16,346 nt of DNA from a virus. Its lineage: Duplodnaviria > Heunggongvirae > Uroviricota > Caudoviricetes. The notes under the pieces were generated by a model. The model did no database searches. It had not been told where the DNA came from and was given only the letters and a program-made list of their open reading frames with translations. Every line of letters begins with the position of its first letter. Positions within the stretch are counted from its first letter, which is position 1. The stretch lies in the IMG/VR virus record IMGVR_UViG_2529292829_000006; one strand, given 5' to 3'. The translations under genes were made by a program, and so were the position numbers. Below, one piece after another: positions 1,369 through 16,346 of this stretch.

Positions 1369-1444
1369 GCCGATATAGCTCAGTTGGTAGAGCAGCGCAT
1401 TCGTAATGCGAAGGTCGTAGGTTCGACTCCTATTATCGGCACCA
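1369..1444 (+). tRNA. thrW: tRNA-Thr (anticodon CGU), thrW-like; integration target of the downstream element
   Basis: 76-nt sequence GCCGATATAGCTCAGTTGGTAGAGCAGCGCATTCGTAATGCGAAGGTCGTAGGTTCGACTCCTATTATCGGCACCA; acceptor stem GCCGATA/TATCGGC, D-stem GCTC/GAGC, anticodon loop TTCGTAA (CGT), T-loop GGTTCGACTCC, 3' CCA. Confidence 0.9.
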
Positions 1445-1610: not shown

Positions 1611-2825
1611 GTGAAACTCAATGCCCGTCAAATAGACACTGCCAAGCCAAAAGAGAAGGCTTACAAGCTGGCTGATGGTGGTGGTCTGTATCTCTTGGTA
1701 AAACCTAGTGGAGGAAAATATTGGCGCTTCAAGTATCGTGTAGCTGGTAAAGAGAAGCTGTTAGCACTAGGTGTGTATCCTGAAGTTACCTTGGCTGATG
1801 CTCGTGCAAAACGTGAAGAAGCTAAAAGGGGTATCGCTGGGGGTATCGATCCGATGGAAGCGAAACGAGAGGAAAAGATTGCCCGGGAAACGCAGTTAAA
1901 CAACACCTTCAAAGATATTGCCCTTGAGTGGCACAGCAGCAAATTAAAAAAATGGTCTGCTGGTTATGCTTCAGACATCCTCGAAGCCTTCAACAAAGAT
2001 GTGTTCCCTTACATTGGCAAAAAACCAATCGCCGAAATCAAACCACTTGAACTGCTGAATGTGCTGCGGCGCATCGAGGGGCGCGGTGCTACCGAAAAAG
2101 CCAAAAAAGTGAGGCAGCGATGTGGGGAAGTTTTCCGCTATGCAATTGTCACTGGACGTGCTGAGTATAACCCTGCACCGGATCTCACCAGCGCGATGCA
2201 AGGTCATGAATCTAATCATTATCCTTTCCTCACAGCCAAAGAATTACCTGATTTTTTCAAGGCATTGTCCAGTTACTCAGGAAGTGCATTGGTTGTTATG
2301 GCGGCTCGTTTACTGATTATCACCGGTTTGCGGACTGGCGAACTGCGCGGGGCATTATGGGATGAAATCGATCTCAACAAGGCTATCTGGGAGATACCTG
2401 CTTCACGGATGAAAATGCGTCGCCCTCATGTAGTGCCTTTGTCTGAGCAGGCTCTTTCGCTTATTGGGCAGATTAAAGAACTAACTGGCAATTATCCGCT
2501 TATGTTTCCCGGCCGTAATGATCCAAGGAAAACAATGAGCGAGGCTAGCATAAACCAAGTATTTAAACGCATCGGCTATAACGGAAAGGTTACTGGTCAT
2601 GGCTTCCGGCACACTATGAGCACCATTTTGCATGAGCAGGGCTATAACACCGCGTGGATAGAGACACAGCTTGCGCACGTCGATAAAAACTCAATTCGTG
2701 GCACATACAACCATGCGCAATATCTGGATGGGCGGCGGGAAATGCTTCAGTGGTACGCTGATTATATGGATTCGCTCGAGCATGGCGGAAATGTGGTGCA
2801 TGGTGAGTTCGGAAAATGCGGGTGA
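1611..2825 (+). CDS. int: tyrosine-type site-specific integrase, P4-type
   Basis: 404-aa ORF with GTG start and GGAGG 9 nt upstream; N-terminus MKLNARQIDTAKPKEKAYKLADGGGLYLLVKPSGGKYWRFKYR typical of P4-family integrases; catalytic-region motifs LRTGELRG, HGFRHT and C-terminal Tyr region present. Confidence 0.9.
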   Translation: MKLNARQIDTAKPKEKAYKLADGGGLYLLVKPSGGKYWRFKYRVAGKEKLLALGVYPEVTLADARAKREEAKRGIAGGIDPMEAKREEKIARETQLNNTFKDIALEWHSSKLKKWSAGYASDILEAFNKDVFPYIGKKPIAEIKPLELLNVLRRIEGRGATEKAKKVRQRCGEVFRYAIVTGRAEYNPAPDLTSAMQGHESNHYPFLTAKELPDFFKALSSYSGSALVVMAARLLIITGLRTGELRGALWDEIDLNKAIWEIPASRMKMRRPHVVPLSEQALSLIGQIKELTGNYPLMFPGRNDPRKTMSEASINQVFKRIGYNGKVTGHGFRHTMSTILHEQGYNTAWIETQLAHVDKNSIRGTYNHAQYLDGRREMLQWYADYMDSLEHGGNVVHGEFGKCG

Positions 2826-4286: not shown

Positions 4287-5087
4287 ATGAAATTTCCAAA
4301 AATGCCCGTACAGGGGCGGGGCTTCGTTCGGCCTGAAAACCAGAATCTGCAAAATCTCGGCGAAATTATCCCGATTATTTCCGGCGTTATTGGCGGGAGT
4401 GAAACCAATATTGTTAGTGCCAGAGCGTTACATAAGGCGTTAGGTGTAGGGCGCGTTTTCCGTTCGTGGATCAAGGGGCGCATTGAAGAATACGGCTTCA
4501 CGGAAGGCGTGGATTATGAGGTTGTTGAATATTTGAGCCGACCCGATCCGGTGAGCGCAAAATCTCGCCAGCAAACAGCTCTTGAGTACATCATCACCGT
4601 GAACATGGCGAAAGAACTGGCGATGGTCGAACGTACCGAACAGGGCCGCGCCGTTCGCCAGTACTTTATCAAATGCGAGGAGGAGCTACACAAGGTTGCG
4701 CCTGTTCGTTCCGCAGCGTTACGCCGGGAACTGAAAGCCCGTATCACAGTTGCCAGCTACTTTAAGCCAATGTGTGCCGCGCTGGAGGCGTACCGGGCTG
4801 AACTGGGTAAAAACACACTCCAGCACCACTACACCACGGAAGCGAACATGCTGGCGCGTATCGTGCTGGGTGGCATGACTGCAAAACAGTGGGCACTGGC
4901 GAACGGCATTACAGGCGAACCACGCGACCACATGAGCACGTTGCAGCTTGAGCACCTTTCTTACCTTGAGCAGAGCAATATCACGCTGATTGAGTTAGGC
5001 CAGGACTACCACCAGCGGAAGGCTGAATTAATTCGTCTTTCGCAGCGTTGGTTAGCCCGTCGCATGGAGGAAAACAGCCATGTGTAA
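4287..5087 (+). CDS. phage antirepressor-like protein (AntA / KilA-C-type region)
   Basis: AGGAG 7 nt upstream of ATG; segment NIVSARALHKALGVGRVFRSWIKGRIEEYGFTEGVDYEV resembles antirepressor N-terminal domains, and TALEYIITVNMAKELAMVERTEQGRAVRQYFIKCEE resembles KilA-C/ANT regions. Assigned from memory of family patterns. Confidence 0.65.
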   Translation: MKFPKMPVQGRGFVRPENQNLQNLGEIIPIISGVIGGSETNIVSARALHKALGVGRVFRSWIKGRIEEYGFTEGVDYEVVEYLSRPDPVSAKSRQQTALEYIITVNMAKELAMVERTEQGRAVRQYFIKCEEELHKVAPVRSAALRRELKARITVASYFKPMCAALEAYRAELGKNTLQHHYTTEANMLARIVLGGMTAKQWALANGITGEPRDHMSTLQLEHLSYLEQSNITLIELGQDYHQRKAELIRLSQRWLARRMEENSHV

Positions 5088-5804
5088 CGCTCTGACCGTT
5101 ACAAAAAGAGAAAGCGCCCCGTTGCCGGAGCGCCTTTGTGAACGAATAGCCTACTGCGCCATATTGCTTACTGTCTACGAGGCAGATTATAGCGTTGTGG
5201 TCGCACAGAGTGAAGGCGCTGATCACCGTTACTACAGCACGCCAGAAATGCAGAATATTTTGCTGCAAAATGTCGTTGGTCACACTGTCCGGAAAGCAAA
5301 AAATTTTGCTGGTGGCGCGACTGATGCGATTTTGTCAGGTCGCCAGGTGCTGATCAATCTGATGTCTGATTTCGTTCTGGATAAAACAAAGGCGACCGCA
5401 GAGGGCCGCCAGTGGGAAAGCTACATACTTGAACGCATCGCCAACAATGCCAGATTTGCGGCTGGTGGGCAATGTGTCAGCTTTGCACCAATGACTCTAT
5501 GTTTAACTGAGGGTCATTATGGTGAATATGCTGGCTTGCTGGTGGGCTATTCCTGCTCTTTAACATTGCCATGCCGCGATGTTTTCCAGGTATGCGACCC
5601 CATTTTTGTGCGCCTGTACTCTTTAAGGAATTTCTCAAGGATAAACGCACAGGGCGCGAATCTGTTTGACTCATGCTCGTACGCTATCTTTCTGCGCTGT
5701 CTTTTCCGTGCCGGTGATGGTGTATTGGTTGATTTTTTGTTGGTCATGGCGCAGCCCTGTAAAACGATGCACCGTAGTTCCTCACACCACGGCGCTGGTG
5801 ATGG

Positions 5805-5984
5805 TTACTCCTGTTCTTTGGCCTTGCGGCGCTGGCGGTATTCAACTTCTCGCTTTAATGCTGCTGTTACAAACTGCCCTGTACTTTCACCAGGCATTTT
5901 TACCGCCTCAACATTGTTCATAACTTCATGCGGAACCCTTGCCGCAACTGTTTGTGATTTTGCGTTTACTGCTTTTGTCGCCAT
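5805..5984 (-). CDS. small (59 aa) basic protein, candidate ribbon-helix-helix (Arc-like) transcriptional regulator, divergent from the replication operon
   Basis: Hand translation of the minus strand: MATKAVNAKSQTVAARVPHEVMNNVEAVKMPGESTGQFVTAALKREVEYRQRRKAKEQE; SD AAGGGG 8 nt upstream of ATG; below the ORF-track length cutoff; operator-like palindromes lie immediately upstream. Confidence 0.5.
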   Translation of the reverse strand: MATKAVNAKSQTVAARVPHEVMNNVEAVKMPGESTGQFVTAALKREVEYRQRRKAKEQE

Positions 5985-6029
5985 GTTGTGTACCCCTTAC
6001 AAAAAACAAATGCAGTATGCAGGAAAAAA

Positions 6030-6110
6030 AATAAGTGTTCAACACTTGACGTGTTTAACACCTGGGCTTAAATTGGTGTTCAACACCTTGTTGATGCAAG
6101 GTGCAGAAAC
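6030..6110. promoter_or_regulatory. three copies of the palindrome GTGTT-N-AACAC (6035..6045, 6051..6061, 6076..6086) in the divergent intergenic region; candidate operator/promoter
   Basis: Read directly from sequence; lies between the minus-strand small gene (start 5984) and the plus-strand small-gene chain (start 6184). Confidence 0.5.
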
Positions 6111-6183
6111 GACAACGCCCCGCAGTGGTGGCACACATGCAGGGCGTCTAACCACCAACGATAGCAAGAGTATCGAGGTAGCT

Positions 6184-6387
6184 ATGAGAAATCATACCAC
6201 ACACCCGCAAGGGCGGGACTCGCACAACCTGAATAAATACATCTGGCGTTTTATCGCCCTGAGCACGGCACAACCGCGCGTAATTCACATCGAGGCCACC
6301 AGCGAACAGGAAGCACGCCAGCAATCTCCTGATGGCTGCGTGATGGTATTCGCCGCCCGTATTCGCCAGGAGGTGGAACATGTGTAA
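6184..6387 (+). CDS. small hypothetical protein (67 aa), first gene of a translationally coupled chain
   Basis: ATG at 6184 with GAGG upstream; MRNHTTHPQGRDSHNLNKYIWRFIALSTAQPRVIHIEATSEQEARQQSPDGCVMVFAARIRQEVEHV; stop overlaps the next start (ATGTGTAA). Confidence 0.45.
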   Translation: MRNHTTHPQGRDSHNLNKYIWRFIALSTAQPRVIHIEATSEQEARQQSPDGCVMVFAARIRQEVEHV

Positions 6388-9843: not shown

Positions 9844-9847
9844 AACG

Positions 9848-10390
9848 ATGGGGCAAAGCATGACTAAGCTGACCATTAACAGAAAACCGAAAGGCATTTA
9901 CGGCACGCCGCAGAAAACGACGCAGGCGGCGCAGGAGCAGGATAAAACCACATCGGCGCATAAAGTGATGCCCGGTAACCAGAAAGCGCAGCAAAAGCCC
10001 ACAGGGGCGACACCGTGGCGGCATATGACCAAACGCCAGCGCAAAAACCGCAGGCGCGTTAACCGCCTCACTGAGTTGTGGCCTGACTTATTCAGCCGGG
10101 AAGCACCGAAGCCGCTTAAGGTGGGGATATTCGACGACCTGATGCAGGATCTCGCCGTCAGGGGGCTGGCATTCGGGCCAGGGGCATTGCGTGCGACGCT
10201 GGCATCTTATGCGCAGTGTCCGCACTATTACCGCGCCTTAATGGCTGGTGGGGTACGCTACGACCTGAAAGGCCAGCCGTGCGGCGAGGTGACACCACAG
10301 GAACAACAGGACGCAGAAACGCGGCTGGTGGCGCTGAATGAGAAGCGCAAACGCCAGCGCCGGGCAGCAAAGGAGACAATAGGCGCATGA
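9848..10390 (+). CDS. ProQ/FinO-family RNA-binding protein
   Basis: Segment RRVNRLTELWPDLFSREAPKPLKVGIFDDLMQDL matches the conserved FinO/ProQ domain pattern; an alternative start at the ATG 9860 is possible. Confidence 0.7.
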   Translation: MGQSMTKLTINRKPKGIYGTPQKTTQAAQEQDKTTSAHKVMPGNQKAQQKPTGATPWRHMTKRQRKNRRRVNRLTELWPDLFSREAPKPLKVGIFDDLMQDLAVRGLAFGPGALRATLASYAQCPHYYRALMAGGVRYDLKGQPCGEVTPQEQQDAETRLVALNEKRKRQRRAAKETIGA

Positions 10391-10632
10391 TTCACGACAG
10401 CAAAGCGGAAGCACTGGAAGCGCGTGGTCTGTACCGGAGAGCGGCGGCGCGGTGGGCTGAGGTCATCATGCTGGCGAATGATGACAAGGCACGGGAACAG
10501 GCGGCAAAACGTCGCGCGGAATGTATCCACAAGGCAGCACGCCCACCAGCAAGGCAGGATAATTTCGGGGGAGATGCGCGAAACCATCAGCCGGGCACAT
10601 GCCGGGATGGGATTACATCAGCCCAATGGTGA
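10387..10632 (+). CDS. PerC-family-like small transcriptional activator
   Basis: N-terminus MIHDSKAEALEARGLYRRAAARWAEVI resembles the PerC/Pch family signature (from memory); start overlaps upstream stop (ATGA). Confidence 0.5.
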   Translation: MIHDSKAEALEARGLYRRAAARWAEVIMLANDDKAREQAAKRRAECIHKAARPPARQDNFGGDARNHQPGTCRDGITSAQW

Positions 10633-10809
10633 GGCATTCAGGAAATACCAAAAAAAGAACAATTGTAGTCAGTAACAGAGGATGGGATTCTCTTGGTTTT
10701 TTGTTGATGCTTTCTGAGGAAATCTACTACGTTGCTGAGCAGATGAATATTCAATTGCATCTGGGTTCCTGATAAGATTAATCTGAATATTTTCATTTGG
10801 AATAGGGAT

Positions 10810-11952
10810 ATGAATAAAACTTTAATTGCAACATTAGTCGGTATAGTAATGTTAACCGGATGTGGGCCAGAAGAGTTAACTCCAGAACAGAAACAGGAAG
10901 TAGCGGCTCTTAAAGCTGAACTGTCGCAAACGGAAGGTGAAATATCAGCAGCTAAGGAAGTTGACCAGCAGTTTTCTGGTGGGTTGATAAAAAATCTGAC
11001 AACAGCAAGACTGGAAATATTAGGAACTAATAAAGCGCTTTTGGAACAGCGTATTAATGCTATTGAATCAGGTGCCAAAATTGATGTTGTTGTATCTGGA
11101 GTAAAACCTGATCCTGAGCTTGCGGCTTCAATTAAAACTGAAATTGACAGCTTAGATGCAAAAATCAACGAAGCCAAAGCTGATGCTCGTCAGTATAGTG
11201 GTGGTCTGATAAAGGTACTAAAATTATCTACTGTTGCCACTGAAGAGCAGACCATGGCAATGTTGCAGCAAAAGTACCTCACAGCCAAGTATGGCCTCGC
11301 TGAAGTTAAGCTGGCATCAGTACAAGATAATGACGCAAAAAACAGTACTGAAACGGAAGTAACAGCCAAAAATTCCCAAGGGCAACTTCCTTTACTCCCG
11401 CCAGCGGATGGTCCGTTTGGCTTAGAAGCCGGTCTTACACAGAAAAACATCGAAGATATGATCGGTGCTAAGCTCAAGCCACTACCAGACAGTGTGAATC
11501 TGTATACTTCTGATAAATTACCGAAGCAAAACGCAGATTTTGAAATGTATGGTTTGTTGATCTCCCCGAAAGCTGGTTTATGTCAAATACGGGCTTTAGG
11601 AAAAAATATTGATACTGATAGCTATGGATTGGCTCTTAAATCCAAGTTTGAAGAATTGAGTAATTCTTTAAGTTCTCTGTATGGAAAGGCTGATACTACA
11701 GACTTTTTGCTGGCTGGTTCAATTTGGAAAGATCCTCAGGACTGGATGAGGGGGCTAAACAAAAAAGAACGCTTCTTATCTGCCACATGGAAGGGAACAA
11801 AAGAAATACCATTAAAAAACAATATCGATACTATCTCTATTGAGGCCAGAGCGAACAATTCCACTCAGGGATATGTCTATCTGCAGTACTCATTTACAAA
11901 TGACGAAATTTGTCAGGAAGAAATTGAAGGGGCGAAAAAAAGTTCCCTTTAA
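10810..11952 (+). CDS. lipoprotein (type II signal peptide, lipobox LTGC) with tandem internal repeats; function unknown; AT-rich cargo
   Basis: MNKTLIATLVGIVMLTGC signal/lipobox; two similar ~55-aa segments (QFSGGLIKNLTTARLEILG... and QYSGGLIKVLKLSTVATEE...); SD AGGGA upstream; low GC. Confidence 0.75.
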   Translation: MNKTLIATLVGIVMLTGCGPEELTPEQKQEVAALKAELSQTEGEISAAKEVDQQFSGGLIKNLTTARLEILGTNKALLEQRINAIESGAKIDVVVSGVKPDPELAASIKTEIDSLDAKINEAKADARQYSGGLIKVLKLSTVATEEQTMAMLQQKYLTAKYGLAEVKLASVQDNDAKNSTETEVTAKNSQGQLPLLPPADGPFGLEAGLTQKNIEDMIGAKLKPLPDSVNLYTSDKLPKQNADFEMYGLLISPKAGLCQIRALGKNIDTDSYGLALKSKFEELSNSLSSLYGKADTTDFLLAGSIWKDPQDWMRGLNKKERFLSATWKGTKEIPLKNNIDTISIEARANNSTQGYVYLQYSFTNDEICQEEIEGAKKSSL

Positions 11953-11964
11953 ACAATCCGTGCA

Positions 11965-11992
11965 AAGCCCCTTAGTAAGGGGCTTTTATATA
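11965..11992 (+). terminator. rho-independent terminator (GCCCCT-TAGTA-AGGGGC followed by TTTTATAT)
   Basis: GC-rich hairpin plus T-tract read directly, immediately 3' of the lipoprotein gene. Confidence 0.6.
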
Positions 11993-12016
11993 TTAATGTT
12001 CAACGGGGGGGATTAG

Positions 12017-12340
12017 ATGAAAGATAATCTAGAAAAACTAATTGAAAATACTTTAAAAGATATTCTATTAGCTAATGCTGCTCTAACATTCATTTTTGCA
12101 ATACCAATGGCTATTATCAGTAGGCATGGGATGGGCATCACAATCTGGTTTATAACTGTGCTCATTGCACCTGCTCTGTGTGCAGTAGGTGCATGGCTTG
12201 TATCTCGAACATTCGGCCATGCTGAGGAGTTCTTTCATCGTCGGTGGGCTAAGCGAATCTATGTTTTTTATACTCTTGCGGCTGCCGAGTTTTTGCTTGT
12301 GTACTCAATCGCGCAAATAATGAAAAATCTGATGAAATAA
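12017..12340 (+). CDS. small integral membrane protein (107 aa, about 3 predicted transmembrane helices)
   Basis: Hydrophobic stretches LLANAALTFIFAIPMAII, ITIWFITVLIAPALCAVGAWLV, IYVFYTLAAAEFLLVYSIAQI; GGGGG ribosome-binding site about 8 nt upstream. Confidence 0.65.
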   Translation: MKDNLEKLIENTLKDILLANAALTFIFAIPMAIISRHGMGITIWFITVLIAPALCAVGAWLVSRTFGHAEEFFHRRWAKRIYVFYTLAAAEFLLVYSIAQIMKNLMK

Positions 12341-12529
12341 TTAACAAGTTATTATCATGGGGTTTGTGGCTGTTAACCTGCAGTGAGGCGACAATCGTGT
12401 ATTTATAAAAACTTCCCCTTTTCACTCCCCGCTGTTTCTTCTGCTATTTCCTTTATGTTTGCATGCAGCAACATCTGCCATACCTTTGCAGAAAAATCAG
12501 AGCATTTAGTGCCGAAGGTTGGTTTATTG

Positions 12530-12622
12530 ATGCTTTTTGTTTCATTTATTGCAATTATCGATGGTATTATTTCAATTTGTGCAATAATTGCAATTATTGT
12601 CATTCAGAAGGGATCATCATGA
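12530..12622 (+). CDS. possible 30-aa hydrophobic peptide (MLFVSFIAIIDGIISICAIIAIIVIQKGSS), start-coupled to the downstream gene
   Basis: In-frame ATG within track ORF 12383..12622; GAAGG about 12 nt upstream; stop overlaps the ATG at 12619 (ATGA). Could be a leader peptide or small membrane toxin-like peptide; speculative. Confidence 0.3.
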   Translation: MLFVSFIAIIDGIISICAIIAIIVIQKGSS

Positions 12623-12786
12623 AAAATCACGGAGTAAAGCCAGTTTTACTTTCCCGGGGGCAGATCGAAGCCCTGCAACGTATCCAGGCCGAAAAGCGTC
12701 AGAAATCTGTGCTTGGTGTGGCACCGTCGATTCATGTTATTGCCCGGCAACTGATGGATAAGGCACTTAAAGAGGTGAGGCTGTGA
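12619..12786 (+). CDS. small hypothetical protein (55 aa)
   Basis: ATG at 12619 with AAGGG upstream; MKNHGVKPVLLSRGQIEALQRIQAEKRQKSVLGVAPSIHVIARQLMDKALKEVRL; stop overlaps next start (GTGA). Confidence 0.45.
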   Translation: MKNHGVKPVLLSRGQIEALQRIQAEKRQKSVLGVAPSIHVIARQLMDKALKEVRL

Positions 12787-13055
12787 AATTAAATATCAGA
12801 GTGGATAAACGCCAGCTATGGCAGAAAAAAGAGAACAGCGAGGCATTCAGGGCTTTGCTGGTGGAAAATCTTCGGCACCGGTTCAGTGGAGAGTTGCCTG
12901 ATGCACTGGGGAAGAAACTGGAATCCCTGACGGTGGAAATTGGCGATTATGGCTTTGTTGATGTTGAAAGCACGACTGCCAACACAGAAATCGTAAAGCA
13001 GGTCGTCAATGATGTAATGAAAACCACGCTTAGCCAGCCATCCTGGCGCAACTGA
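12783..13055 (+). CDS. small hypothetical protein (90 aa)
   Basis: GTG start overlapping upstream stop; protein-like composition; weak hairpin (AGGGGC/GCCCCT) downstream at about 13062..13085. Confidence 0.5.
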   Translation: MKLNIRVDKRQLWQKKENSEAFRALLVENLRHRFSGELPDALGKKLESLTVEIGDYGFVDVESTTANTEIVKQVVNDVMKTTLSQPSWRN

Positions 13056-13154
13056 ATCAGTAAGGGGCGGTTATTGCCCCTTTCCTCCATACCCACAACG
13101 CATTCCCTTTTCGCATTAAATTATTTTTTATCGTATATGCATGAGGTGAGCTAC

Positions 13155-13682
13155 ATGTTGATGAGTAAAGCCGAATACGCCAAATACAAAGGCGTAAGCC
13201 GCCAGACAGTTTACGACTGGATCGAGAAAGGCGAAGTGATCATGTCTGGCAAAAAAATTGATGTGGAAGCGACAGAGCAGCGGAACAGCCCACCAGCACA
13301 GGGGAAAGACACCATTTCTGAAATGTGGCCAGAAAGAACGCTGGAAATGACGTGGGGCGAGTTCTGGAAAGCAGTTAAGGCCAGAGGCGGTAAAATTCCT
13401 GCGCCAGCAACGGACGAGGGCATACAGCAGCGTGTGCTGGATGCAGCCGGGGAATTAGGCTGGGAAGTGCACTTTCTTGATGATGGTGCTATCTGCCTTG
13501 AGGATGATGAAGGGCAGCATTACTTTGAAAAATACAATTTGCGAGGTAATGCCAGGCTGGCAATTCGTATGCTGCGTTGCGAACTCTGCTATGTTGCAGG
13601 TGATTATGCCGATGAACTGGAATCATGGAGTGAAGCCGGGCTAAACGCCCTAGCTGAATGGGAAAAATCAGACCATCAATGA
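13155..13682 (+). CDS. HTH DNA-binding protein, terminase-small-subunit-like / packaging-redirection (Rpp-like) candidate
   Basis: N-terminus MLMSKAEYAKYKGVSRQTVYDWIEKGEV is a typical phage TerS/excisionase-type HTH; GAGGTG SD 8 nt upstream of the ATG at 13155 (track ORF begins at 13074); a repeat array follows immediately. Confidence 0.6.
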   Translation: MLMSKAEYAKYKGVSRQTVYDWIEKGEVIMSGKKIDVEATEQRNSPPAQGKDTISEMWPERTLEMTWGEFWKAVKARGGKIPAPATDEGIQQRVLDAAGELGWEVHFLDDGAICLEDDEGQHYFEKYNLRGNARLAIRMLRCELCYVAGDYADELESWSEAGLNALAEWEKSDHQ

Positions 13683-13686
13683 CATC

Positions 13687-13905
13687 AAAAAGTGTCAAGT
13701 TGAGCAGCTTGCCAGGTTGACACTTTACACTCTGAACGCGAAAAAGTGTCAACCTCGCTGTAAGCCGCGCCATTACTGGCCTTTCGCCAGATTTACCACG
13801 TCAAAAAGCCGAAAAAATCGCGAAAAGTGTCAAGTTGCCATGCTTAGAAATGCCAGGGGAGGTTAAGTTTTGTTAAGGTTTTTCCCGAAAAAGTGTCAAG
13901 TGTGT
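13687..13905. repeat. array of AAAGTGTCAA(G/C)YTG repeats including an inverted pair (13689..13726); candidate binding/packaging (cos- or pac-like) site
   Basis: Copies at about 13687, 13717 (inverted), 13742, 13823, 13888 and 13897; read directly from sequence. Confidence 0.55.
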
Positions 13906-14285
13906 CAACCCGCGATATACAGATTTATTAAGGTTTTGAGCCAGAAAGAGTTAACCGCGCCGCTTTAGAAAACTTCAGGCACGCATTTGTGAAAGCATCA
14001 AATGAAGTTCTGTCATACTTTGCAAATCATGCAGATGCATCGTTACTGAGCATTTTAAGTTACAGTTGATGCGGACTGTCCACTTTAACCTTTCAAAACG
14101 TTTCGTAGTAGGTACTAACTAGAATGCCAAGAGTCTTTCAGGTTCCGTGATGTTTAGCGTTGGATTTGATATTAAGTGTTTAAATTCAATGTGTTACATT
14201 GTGTTATAAAGTTTATTGCTAACAACTGTAGGGTAGATGCCAAGCGCACGCTAAGCATGTTATAATCATTTCAACTTTCATAATA

Positions 14286-15281
14286 ATGGATACGAGAGTG
14301 GCGACGATAATCAAAAATATAGCAATCAAAGGTCTTTTTAAACGGAAGGACATTGATTGGAGTTTAAAAGATGTGAATGTTTTAGTGGGTAAAAATGGCT
14401 CAGGTAAGAGCACGATAATTCAAAGTGTTTTTGCCCTCTTAAAACAAGAATTAAATGAAAGTTTAAGTAATGCTGCGTTGGCTCAAATAACATTGGCCAA
14501 TGGAGGCACAATTACTCACAAAGTTAATTTTCGCGAAATTGACTCTGTCCAGCTTCTAAACCTACTTAATAACCTTAAGAAAAACAGTATTAAAGGTAAA
14601 TCAAAGGGTAAGGAAATAAAGGAGTTAAATGAACTTATTGAGTTGCTTGAATCGAAAAAAGAAGACACTGAAATTAAAGAGTTCGGGATGGGAACTGTTA
14701 GCGTAAGTGATAATATTAAAAACACTAAGCGAATAAATGTTGAGTTAATATCAACTATCAATATGAGTGCCAATTCCATCTATGAATTCAAAAAAAGTGA
14801 TGGTGAGCGCACCACAATTCTTGATATGGAAATTGCTGGTGAATTAGAAAGGTTAAAGAATACTTTCAAAGTAAGTGAGTCTAAAGGTATTCTCATAAAG
14901 GATAAGTTGGAATCAGCTATAAATAATTTATTTGCTGAATGTAACAAAGTTGTTTCTTTTAGTAATGGTAACATTTCTATTAAGATGAGTGATTCTGGTG
15001 AAGATATTAGGTATAATCTTCTTTCATCAGGTGAACGTCAGTTGTTATATATTCTGATTAAAACAGCTAATACTTCATTGGATGAATCTGTCTTGTTGAT
15101 GGATGAGCCAGAAATATCCTTGCACCTTACGTGGCAAGAAAGATTAATAAGCACCATCAAATCAATTAACGATAATTGTCAGTTAATTATTGTTACTCAT
15201 AGTCCTGCAATATTAATGAAAGGCTGGATGGATTCTTTCGTAGATATAAAAAATATTTCAAAGGAATCTTCTCATGACTGA
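14286..15281 (+). CDS. ABC-type ATPase (AAA_15/AAA_21-like, OLD/AriA-like), first gene of a candidate anti-phage pair
   Basis: Walker A VGKNGSGKST, ABC signature LSSGERQ, Walker B VLLMDEPE, H-loop IIVTHSP; AT-rich; possible TATAAT at about 14261; an alternative GTG start at 14298 is possible. Confidence 0.85.
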   Translation: MDTRVATIIKNIAIKGLFKRKDIDWSLKDVNVLVGKNGSGKSTIIQSVFALLKQELNESLSNAALAQITLANGGTITHKVNFREIDSVQLLNLLNNLKKNSIKGKSKGKEIKELNELIELLESKKEDTEIKEFGMGTVSVSDNIKNTKRINVELISTINMSANSIYEFKKSDGERTTILDMEIAGELERLKNTFKVSESKGILIKDKLESAINNLFAECNKVVSFSNGNISIKMSDSGEDIRYNLLSSGERQLLYILIKTANTSLDESVLLMDEPEISLHLTWQERLISTIKSINDNCQLIIVTHSPAILMKGWMDSFVDIKNISKESSHD

Positions 15282-16254
15282 GTTTGAGGATATTAATTTT
15301 AGCGAAGAATATCTTCAGGTATATTGTATTATGGCTGGACACAATGGCTTTGTCTTTGTTGAAGGTCTAAAAGACATTTCTTTCTGGGAAGGCTTATTAA
15401 ACGATAAAGATAATGATATACGTTTTGATATTTGTAACCCTACCAATAAAGGAACAAAAGGGAAACCAGTATTAAAAAAATTCATGAGCCGAGCAAATCG
15501 ATATGCCATATTTGCAATGGATAGTGATTTTGATTATTTATGCCCTAAAAACAGTACAGACTCAGAGATAATTTGCAGTAACAAGTTTATTTTTCAAACA
15601 TTTGTATATTCAAAAGAGAGCATCGAGTTACACCATGAAGTCCTTGAGTATTGTCTTTCTCAAATAAAGATCGCTACTGAAATTAAATTCGATTTTACAG
15701 CATACATTACAGAGTATTCACGGTTGATCTACCCCGTGCTGAAGAAATTTTTATTGCTTAAACAGCATCAAGTTAGACTTGATGACTCAGTTTTCCATGA
15801 AGCGATTGCTCCTTCTGTGCCACGATTAACGAACCAATTTGTTATCAAAAATGCTGTATTTGAAAGTATGCAGCAATCTAAAGCGGTTATTGAAGAAAAA
15901 CTTGATAACCTTATTCAAGATGAATACGATGCTGATAAATTCTATGAGCAGTTATATGATAAAGGATTGAGAGAAGATAACGCCTATCAATATATCAATG
16001 GTCATTTTTTAGCTGATAGAGTTGTCATGCCTGTCATAAAATCATTGATAGAGCAATTGAATATTAATGAAACTGCCTTAATAGTCAAACAATGCAAAGA
16101 TAAACCAACCTTAATCTCGGAAAGAAAGAGTGAGCTAAAAAATATTCTTGAAACTGATTTGAATATTAATACGCTATTACACTGTTGCAAAGAAAAGTTC
16201 AAAACTCCTTGTGCTATTGCGATCAAAGAAAATGTAGCTCGAGCTTTAGCATGA
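15274..16254 (+). CDS. TOPRIM-like (DUF4435-type) putative nuclease, OLD/AriB-like effector candidate
   Basis: 8-nt overlap with the ATPase gene (ATGACTGA); N-terminal FVFVEGLKD (conserved Glu) and AIFAMDSDFDY (DxD) in TOPRIM-like spacing; AT-rich. Confidence 0.75.
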   Translation: MTEFEDINFSEEYLQVYCIMAGHNGFVFVEGLKDISFWEGLLNDKDNDIRFDICNPTNKGTKGKPVLKKFMSRANRYAIFAMDSDFDYLCPKNSTDSEIICSNKFIFQTFVYSKESIELHHEVLEYCLSQIKIATEIKFDFTAYITEYSRLIYPVLKKFLLLKQHQVRLDDSVFHEAIAPSVPRLTNQFVIKNAVFESMQQSKAVIEEKLDNLIQDEYDADKFYEQLYDKGLREDNAYQYINGHFLADRVVMPVIKSLIEQLNINETALIVKQCKDKPTLISERKSELKNILETDLNINTLLHCCKEKFKTPCAIAIKENVARALA

Positions 16255-16261
16255 CAATGGA

Positions 16262-16292
16262 AAATAAAAAACCTCATGCCCTTGGGGTTTTT
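16262..16292 (+). terminator. putative terminator (AAAAAACC ... GGTTTTTTT around GCCCTTGGGG)
   Basis: Weak A/T-rich stem with T-tract directly after the TOPRIM-like gene. Confidence 0.35.
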
Positions 16293-16346
16293 TTGCTAAT
16301 TAATTCTGTTCTAACAGAAGGTTATGATAAAACTTTTAAACTGTAG

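Follow-up and report, generated by a model that had tools for sequence, protein, structure and literature searches.

Two adjacent genes close to the 3' end of the window (the whole stretch of DNA that was analysed, 16,346 nt) are, judging from their sequences, a real copy of the known PARIS phage-defence system; they belong to a lineage with a short ATPase, one already covered by standard tools. The pair very probably acts as a PARIS-family abortive-infection module and lies next to attR as exchangeable cargo of an integrase-primase island of ~15 kb at thrW. Conceptually the finding adds little because DefenseFinder-type rules and PADLOC already detect the pair. The cassette is, nevertheless, carried by the 2011 O104:H4 outbreak lineage and by 19 other complete Escherichia coli genomes, and so bears on phage therapy and host-range prediction. 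What is known of the PARIS mechanism derives entirely from a system with a long AriA and with an AriB that is an outlier in DUF4435. The compact lineage is nearer the DUF4435 core, is widespread on mobile elements, and is without the module that the published sensing model needs; it bears on the question of whether the propeller and Ocr model is valid for the whole family.

The gene pair and its family assignment

Gene 1 (14286..15281, + strand; 331 aa from the ATG at 14286) encodes an ariA-like ABC ATPase of compact form and gene 2 (15274..16254, + strand; 326 aa) encodes a putative ariB-like DUF4435/TOPRIM nuclease. A sequence-only reading of this DNA had claimed an 8-nt overlap between the genes, which the ORF list bears out, and all motifs that it quoted were found in the translations. 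Gene 1 contains Walker A GKNGSGKST at residues 35-43 (nt 14388-14414), signature LSSGERQ at residues 246-252 (nt 15021-15041), Walker B LLMDEPE at residues 270-276 (nt 15093-15113), and an H-loop VTHSP at residues 303-307 (nt 15192-15206). Gene 2 contains FVFVE30GLKD34 and AMD83SD85FDY; its acidic codons lie at nt 15361-15363 (E30), 15520-15528 (D83-S-D85), and 15616-15618 (E115). None of the quoted motif residues varies in alignments of 61 gene 1 relatives and 50 diverse gene 2 relatives, so they are not chance matches. For gene 1 the invariant set is K41, S247-Q252, D273/E274, and H305, of which K41 and the Walker B glutamate align with K39 and E393 of B185 AriA. The two genes are translationally coupled, and both the ABC ATPase and the TOPRIM/DUF4435 protein that they encode are intact.

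RefSeq begins gene 2 at 15274 (WP_000134255.1) and gene 1 at a GTG at 14298, which gives a product of 327 aa (WP_000190961.1). Because 47 of the 61 aligned homologs also begin at this position, GTG 14298 is the more likely start of gene 1; the overlap with gene 2 is unchanged by this choice. The AT-richness that had been ascribed to both genes is real, with a GC content of 0.32-0.35 over 14001-16000 compared to roughly 0.44-0.55 in most of the island.

RefSeq names for the two products are generic ('AAA family ATPase' and 'DUF4435 domain-containing protein') because NCBIfam gives only sub-threshold matches for the pair, with ABC-transporter ATPases among them. Such labels and matches are what can be said for reading the genes as an inactive remnant, or as a housekeeping ABC component mistaken for a defence system. 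Against this, neither ORF is broken, no catalytic residue is lost, and 20 of 5,426 complete E. coli genomes, O104:H4 outbreak strains among them, carry the 2.3-kb region around the pair at ≥99% identity. The transporter matches are far under their cut-offs (e.g., 41 bits vs 261) and no permease or substrate-binding gene occurs nearby, for which reasons an ABC transporter was rejected; the remnant or housekeeping reading is extremely improbable.

The earlier description of the genes as an OLD/PARIS-type defence pair holds for PARIS, given the Pfam, PADLOC, and fold comparisons, and fails for OLD. In Pfam, gene 1 scores 74.5 bits with AAA_21 and 71.1 bits with AAA_15, and the sole match of gene 2 is DUF4435 (62.6 bits over residues 26-265), all above curated cut-offs, while TOPRIM_OLD has no Pfam match in the pair. 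The published detection rule for PARIS calls for adjacent genes with AAA_15 at ≥32 bits or AAA_21 at ≥27 bits, together with DUF4435 at ≥27 bits (PMC9122126, methods). The present genes, adjacent with an 8-nt overlap and with all bit scores over these thresholds, are therefore called as PARIS by a rule of the DefenseFinder/PADLOC type. In PADLOC, the top model for gene 1 is AriA PDLC04164 (2.6e-43, 146 bits), with PtuA second at 9e-26, and the top model for gene 2 is AriB PDLC04165 (3.6e-22), with no model other than AriB matching. Solved AriA and AriB structures are also the best structural matches of genes 1 and 2, respectively. Foldseek, queried with the gene 1 structure predicted by AlphaFold2 (pLDDT 84), returns AriA chains as the top 14 matches (best 1.6e-14), with PtuA and Rad50 next; the predicted fold of gene 2 matches AriB moderately (Foldseek TM 0.38). 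By sequence, the closest solved relative of gene 1 in the PDB is B185 AriA (464 aa; 4.4e-17), although the match covers only residues 24-49 and 231-322. Among the families that had been named (OLD, PARIS, and Gabija), assignment to PARIS is thus supported by profile matches and predicted folds.

[quoted passage not shown] Because genes 1 and 2 are separate, DUF4435 is the only Pfam family of gene 2, TOPRIM_OLD is unmatched, and no helicase gene lies nearby, OLD and Gabija were rejected; such a system is very unlikely here. Septu/retron PtuAB and MADS were also considered, as gene 1 matches PtuA at 88.8 bits and mad3 at 82.5 bits and has a PtuA-like fold. Both were rejected, PtuAB because the partner has no HNH match and no retron reverse transcriptase lies nearby, MADS because no methyltransferase genes lie nearby, and each because its score is below that of AriA (146 bits). 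PADLOC PDLC04164/PDLC04165 with the Pfam DUF4435 core form the best-scoring class for the pair and for the compact family, with no substantial difference from it.

Architecture of the compact AriA and its partner

The pair resembles B185 PARIS (PDB 8ux9, 8v45-8v49) in consisting of two co-oriented genes for an ABC ATPase and a DUF4435/TOPRIM protein, in keeping the ATPase motifs and TOPRIM acidic residues, and in being carried as mobile-element cargo. It differs in its carrier, which is a thrW integrase-primase island and probably not a P4 element, and in both proteins: AriA has 327-331 aa compared to 464 aa and is without the Phe-zipper four-helix bundle, while AriB has no direct sequence similarity to its B185 counterpart and does not keep the interface salt-bridge residues. 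The sequence-only reading had suggested that canonical AriA may be longer, which is correct (464 aa in PDB 8v45/8ux9, so that the 331-aa gene 1 product is 133 aa shorter). Its proposal of a distinct compact variant is right in that the shortness is real, but this form is not rare and belongs to a large lineage for which models already exist.

A canonical reference pair was taken from an IMG/VR contig (AriA 471 aa as listed, AriB 311 aa); its AriA is 76% identical to B185 AriA over a C-terminal fragment, and a tblastn search for B185 AriA in the phage collection gave distant matches only. Walker A lysine and signature serine are 206 aa apart in gene 1, 328 aa apart in the IMG/VR canonical AriA, and about 327 aa apart in B185, which places the whole deficit (about 121 aa) in the inter-lobe region. 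An hhalign comparison of the compact ATPase profile with canonical AriA reached no further than the 133 C-terminal columns, so the inserts were compared by the spacing of motifs, the secondary-structure prediction, and domain ranges from the literature, with hairpin and insert boundaries taken from the predicted monomer and the published residue ranges.

B185 AriA has two inserts in this region: IS1 (122-180) has been implicated in trigger recognition and IS2 (242-289) lengthens the coiled coil into a four-helix bundle, the Phe zipper of which (F230/F234/F238/Y304) joins AriA dimers into a hexamer (PMC11464382). Ocr acts at the coiled-coil interface (PMC10802264). In gene 1, sequence and predicted monomer both indicate that the B185-type four-helix bundle, with IS2 and the Phe zipper, is missing. 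Its place is taken across the compact family by a constant two-helix hairpin of 36-43 aa (residues 178-220), and the FxxxFxxxF motif that is present in canonical AriA is absent from the family. Residues 84-132, at the position equivalent to IS1, form a Lys/Arg-rich segment that ranges from 22 to 81 aa across the family and that contains KKNSIKGKSKGKEIK in the window AriA. From this architecture we infer that compact AriA would be unable to form a B185-type propeller and that segment 84-132 would be its likeliest trigger sensor.

These differences could mean that a member of the same family works as a different machine, in which compact AriA forms a Rad50-like dimer (e.g., A2B1 or A2B2) rather than A6B3 and responds to non-Ocr triggers through the basic segment. 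The shortened Walker A-signature spacing, the short hairpin, and the missing zipper argue for such a machine, as does the fact that the B185 hexamer interface is built from precisely the absent elements, IS2 and the zipper, with Ocr acting at the coiled coil; the variable length and basic character of residues 84-132 point the same way. PtuA (PDB 8sux, among the Foldseek matches) is, however, a short ABC ATPase that is still hexameric via other interfaces, and we give this possibility a little less than an even chance. A more specific proposal, a minimal PARIS in which AriB is held on a simple head-to-head AriA dimer and triggers are read via segment 84-132 and neither by pores nor at the coiled-coil interface, is tentative and somewhat doubtful. 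If it is true, the B185 hexamer would be a lineage-specific elaboration, and most natural DUF4435 systems would sense with another geometry and possibly with other triggers.

The partner keeps a TOPRIM-like acidic set. Across 50 diverse relatives (21-35% identity) M1, E30, D34, F37, W38, D83, D85, E115, and H244 are invariant and G63 and K64 nearly so. Metal binding in B185 AriB involves E26, D30, D88, E90, and E122 (PMC11464382). By predicted strand-helix order, E30, D34, D83, D85, and E115 of gene 2 are placed as in TOPRIM, and in a joint alignment the VEGKDD, CDRE, and HSIEN motifs of canonical AriB share columns with E30/D34, D83/D85, and E115, respectively. B185 AriB holds the tRNA anticodon loop with K60 and K64 on a short helix (PMC12409363); canonical AriB lysines fall in the columns of K64 and K68 in gene 2, a correspondence that is tentative because alignment identity is very low. 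Searches of the PDB with gene 2, either by phmmer or with a 15-sequence family profile, found nothing, and hhalign of gene 2 with the canonical AriB from IMG/VR gave 0.4% probability. With no direct sequence similarity to B185-type AriB, gene 2 is linked to it through the broad profiles of DUF4435 and PADLOC and through the moderate fold match. Canonical B185-type AriB itself has no Pfam match and reaches no more than 37 bits with PADLOC's copy of DUF4435, a poorer score than that of the compact lineage, which makes the compact lineage mainstream DUF4435 and the studied B185 system the outlier. At the B185 AriA-AriB interface, D401/E404 of AriA form salt bridges with R28/R31 of AriB (PMC11464382). 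The equivalents here are T282/E285 in AriA and L32/I35 in AriB, with K33 adjacent; interfaces co-evolve between clades, so the difference is neutral as to whether AriB docks on AriA.

By analogy with B185, a head-to-head AriA dimer in the uninfected cell would bind AriB over the ATP sites and keep it inactive. A phage protein, which in B185 is of the anti-restriction/DNA-mimic class, would then bind AriA in an ATP-dependent manner. Freed AriB would dimerise and nick the anticodon region of specific tRNAs, whereupon translation would stop and infection would be aborted, as in B185. In the present copy, oligomeric state and trigger range are probably unlike those of B185 because the four-helix coiled-coil bundle is missing from AriA, and the hypervariable residues 84-132 would be the best candidate for the trigger sensor; trigger, stoichiometry, and RNA target of this pair are extrapolations from the studied system. 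Phage defence by the pair could alternatively be incidental or absent. Deep et al. described B185 PARIS as type II TA-like, with AriA neutralising and solubilising AriB (PMC10802264), and the present genes are translationally coupled and lie at the edge of a mobile island, as might befit a toxin-antitoxin pair. We regard incidental or absent defence as unlikely.

Distribution of the compact lineage

Relatives of gene 1 number >2,892 at E≤1e-5, and among the 120 listed the full-length ones are almost all about 306-362 aa. An exhaustive profile search for gene 2 returned 702 clusters (at 50% identity) at E≤1e-3 and 432 at E≤1e-10; nearly all of the best 150 clusters are 310-367 aa long, with no fusions. 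Among 50 sampled members of the gene 2 family, 49 match PADLOC AriB PDLC04165 and 39 match Pfam DUF4435, so a purely Pfam-based PARIS rule would under-count the lineage by missing the remaining 11. Among the gene 2 homologs sampled from other genera, the one at locus L003 (6001-6999) has no Pfam DUF4435 match and matches PADLOC AriB; for the partners at L012, L013, and L014 none is on record.

The compact ATPase is followed directly by a partner of ~330 aa at five of six sampled loci (one partner is partial, at a contig end), and these five partners match the gene 2 profile at 1e-37 to 1e-57. The paired loci come from Acinetobacter, Gluconobacter, and Shewanella cyperi and from two further contigs, one of E. 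coli that is plasmid-like (Rep3 and Tn3 genes) and one that is prophage-like (Arc and Bro-N genes). The two-gene module thus recurs on mobile elements in several genera. Pairing is not universal, because the ATPase of Shewanella xiamenensis (L002, 5001-5954) has no ORF of ≥100 aa in the 1.6 kb downstream; the system there has perhaps decayed, or the ATPase is an orphan.

Rousset et al. (2022) tested two PARIS systems, B185 and O42, each with a long AriA. The P2-hotspot table of the same study includes PARIS with an AriA of ~395 aa, which is another lineage outside the validated set. Literature searches on both RefSeq accessions and on DUF4435 with PICI found no paper on this pair, and no phenotype was found in the literature for any compact-lineage member.

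The thrW island and its cargo slot

The window is chromosomal DNA of E. coli, and the island in it begins at thrW, a tRNA-Thr(CGT) gene (1369..1444, + strand; ARAGORN and Rfam) that lies downstream of an aldehyde-dehydrogenase-family gene and whose 3' end is the attL core. This core, TCCTATTATCG(G)CACCATT, is repeated at ~18573-18591 of L001 (from NC_018658.1, the O104:H4 record), and attR (TCCTATTATCGCACCATT) lies about 320 bp past the ariB stop, about 230 bp beyond the window end. The ariA-ariB pair is, therefore, the last cargo before attR in an island of ~15 kb. A tyrosine integrase gene (1611..2825, + strand; Pfam Arm-DNA-bind_3, Phage_int_M, and Phage_integrase) is followed directly by an int-alpA RNA motif (Rfam RF02996; 2870-2937, + strand; 45.5 bits vs a gathering threshold of 35.8). 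Other island genes encode AntA-like, Icd-like, D5-type primase, ProQ/FinO, and PerC proteins and an excisionase/TerS-type HTH protein. A 20-mer, GGGGGTACTTTTGGGGGTAT, occurs just inside attL (1562-1581) and just inside attR (L001 18494-18513) and is a candidate arm-type binding site of the integrase or excisionase.

The earlier reading had put the pair in the 3' cargo region of an island and had pointed to P4-like satellites and PICIs as carriers of defence cargo at hotspots. The cargo position stands, in a variable slot at thrW; a P4-type satellite is an improbable carrier, as P4 sid, psu, and delta had no match among the ORFs scanned (a subset of the island ORFs). Compared with the P4 hotspot of Rousset et al. 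(2022), where the core genes sid, delta, psu, alpha, and int flank the cargo, the integrase, D5/primase, Icd-like gene, and int-alpA RNA are present, and a PICI-like integrase-primase island fits the layout better than a P4-type satellite.

Within the island, a 435-aa ORF (5080-6387, + strand) matches phage transcriptional-repressor phrog_6196 (4.8e-54) with only its last ~90 residues. AT skew falls to -0.35 over 5501-6000 inside this ORF, and the O104:H4 record has minus-strand YlcI/YnfO-family genes and an Icd-like gene in the region; most of the ORF is probably spurious.

Upstream of gene 1, the best-scoring promoter candidate in the region is a sigma-70-like site at 14237..14266 (+ strand; ATGCCA, 18 nt, TATAAT; 10/12 matches, with TG before the -10 as in an extended -10), which lies 20-32 nt upstream of the two possible gene 1 start codons. 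It is a candidate only, because sites in the region are no more numerous than in shuffles. An A-tract/U-tract hairpin at 16266..16293 (+ strand), 12 nt past the ariB stop, has an 11-bp stem by RNA fold with a z-score of only -1.6. It was not reported by the terminator scan and is tentatively a possible intrinsic terminator.

The upstream part of the cargo cassette (13785..14285) starts at the left edge of a block shared with O104:H4, at about 13785. Between the window and NC_018658.1 there are 87 mismatches over 9844-13784 and one over 13785-16346. The cassette thus has one mismatch in 2.56 kb next to backbone that is about 2% different, which gives the island a mosaic appearance and fits recent cassette exchange between diverged backbones, as read from these alignments. 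The primase region aligns with O104:H4 in pieces only, at 90-93% identity; RefSeq has a 710-aa DUF927 protein in O104:H4 compared to a 601-aa ORF in the window. Between the HTH-protein gene and the cargo, AAAGTGTCAA occurs five times without a mismatch, four times in direct and once in inverted orientation, within 210 bp at 13689-13899, and the cassette boundary at ~13785 lies inside this cluster. Five matches anywhere in the window were reached by only 6 of 200 shuffles, and the copies could be iterons or operator sites.

A segment of the backbone (12780-13980) is present in 167 genomes, and four sister islands at other chromosomal sites carry different cargo, some of it defence-like, in the ariA-ariB slot. 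In E. coli FDAARGOS_1302 (L009 7726-10824) the slot holds genes for a DNA methyltransferase, a DUF262 protein, and a MAE_28990-family HEPN-like nuclease, and in strain 67-1 (L007 7733-9721) it holds a gene for a 662-aa protein annotated with an RNA-binding domain. Unrelated hypothetical proteins are the cargo in two of the four sister islands. In strain N1420 (L008 7396-9003) the slot encodes two hypothetical proteins side by side (275 and 259 aa), which are a candidate defence pair.
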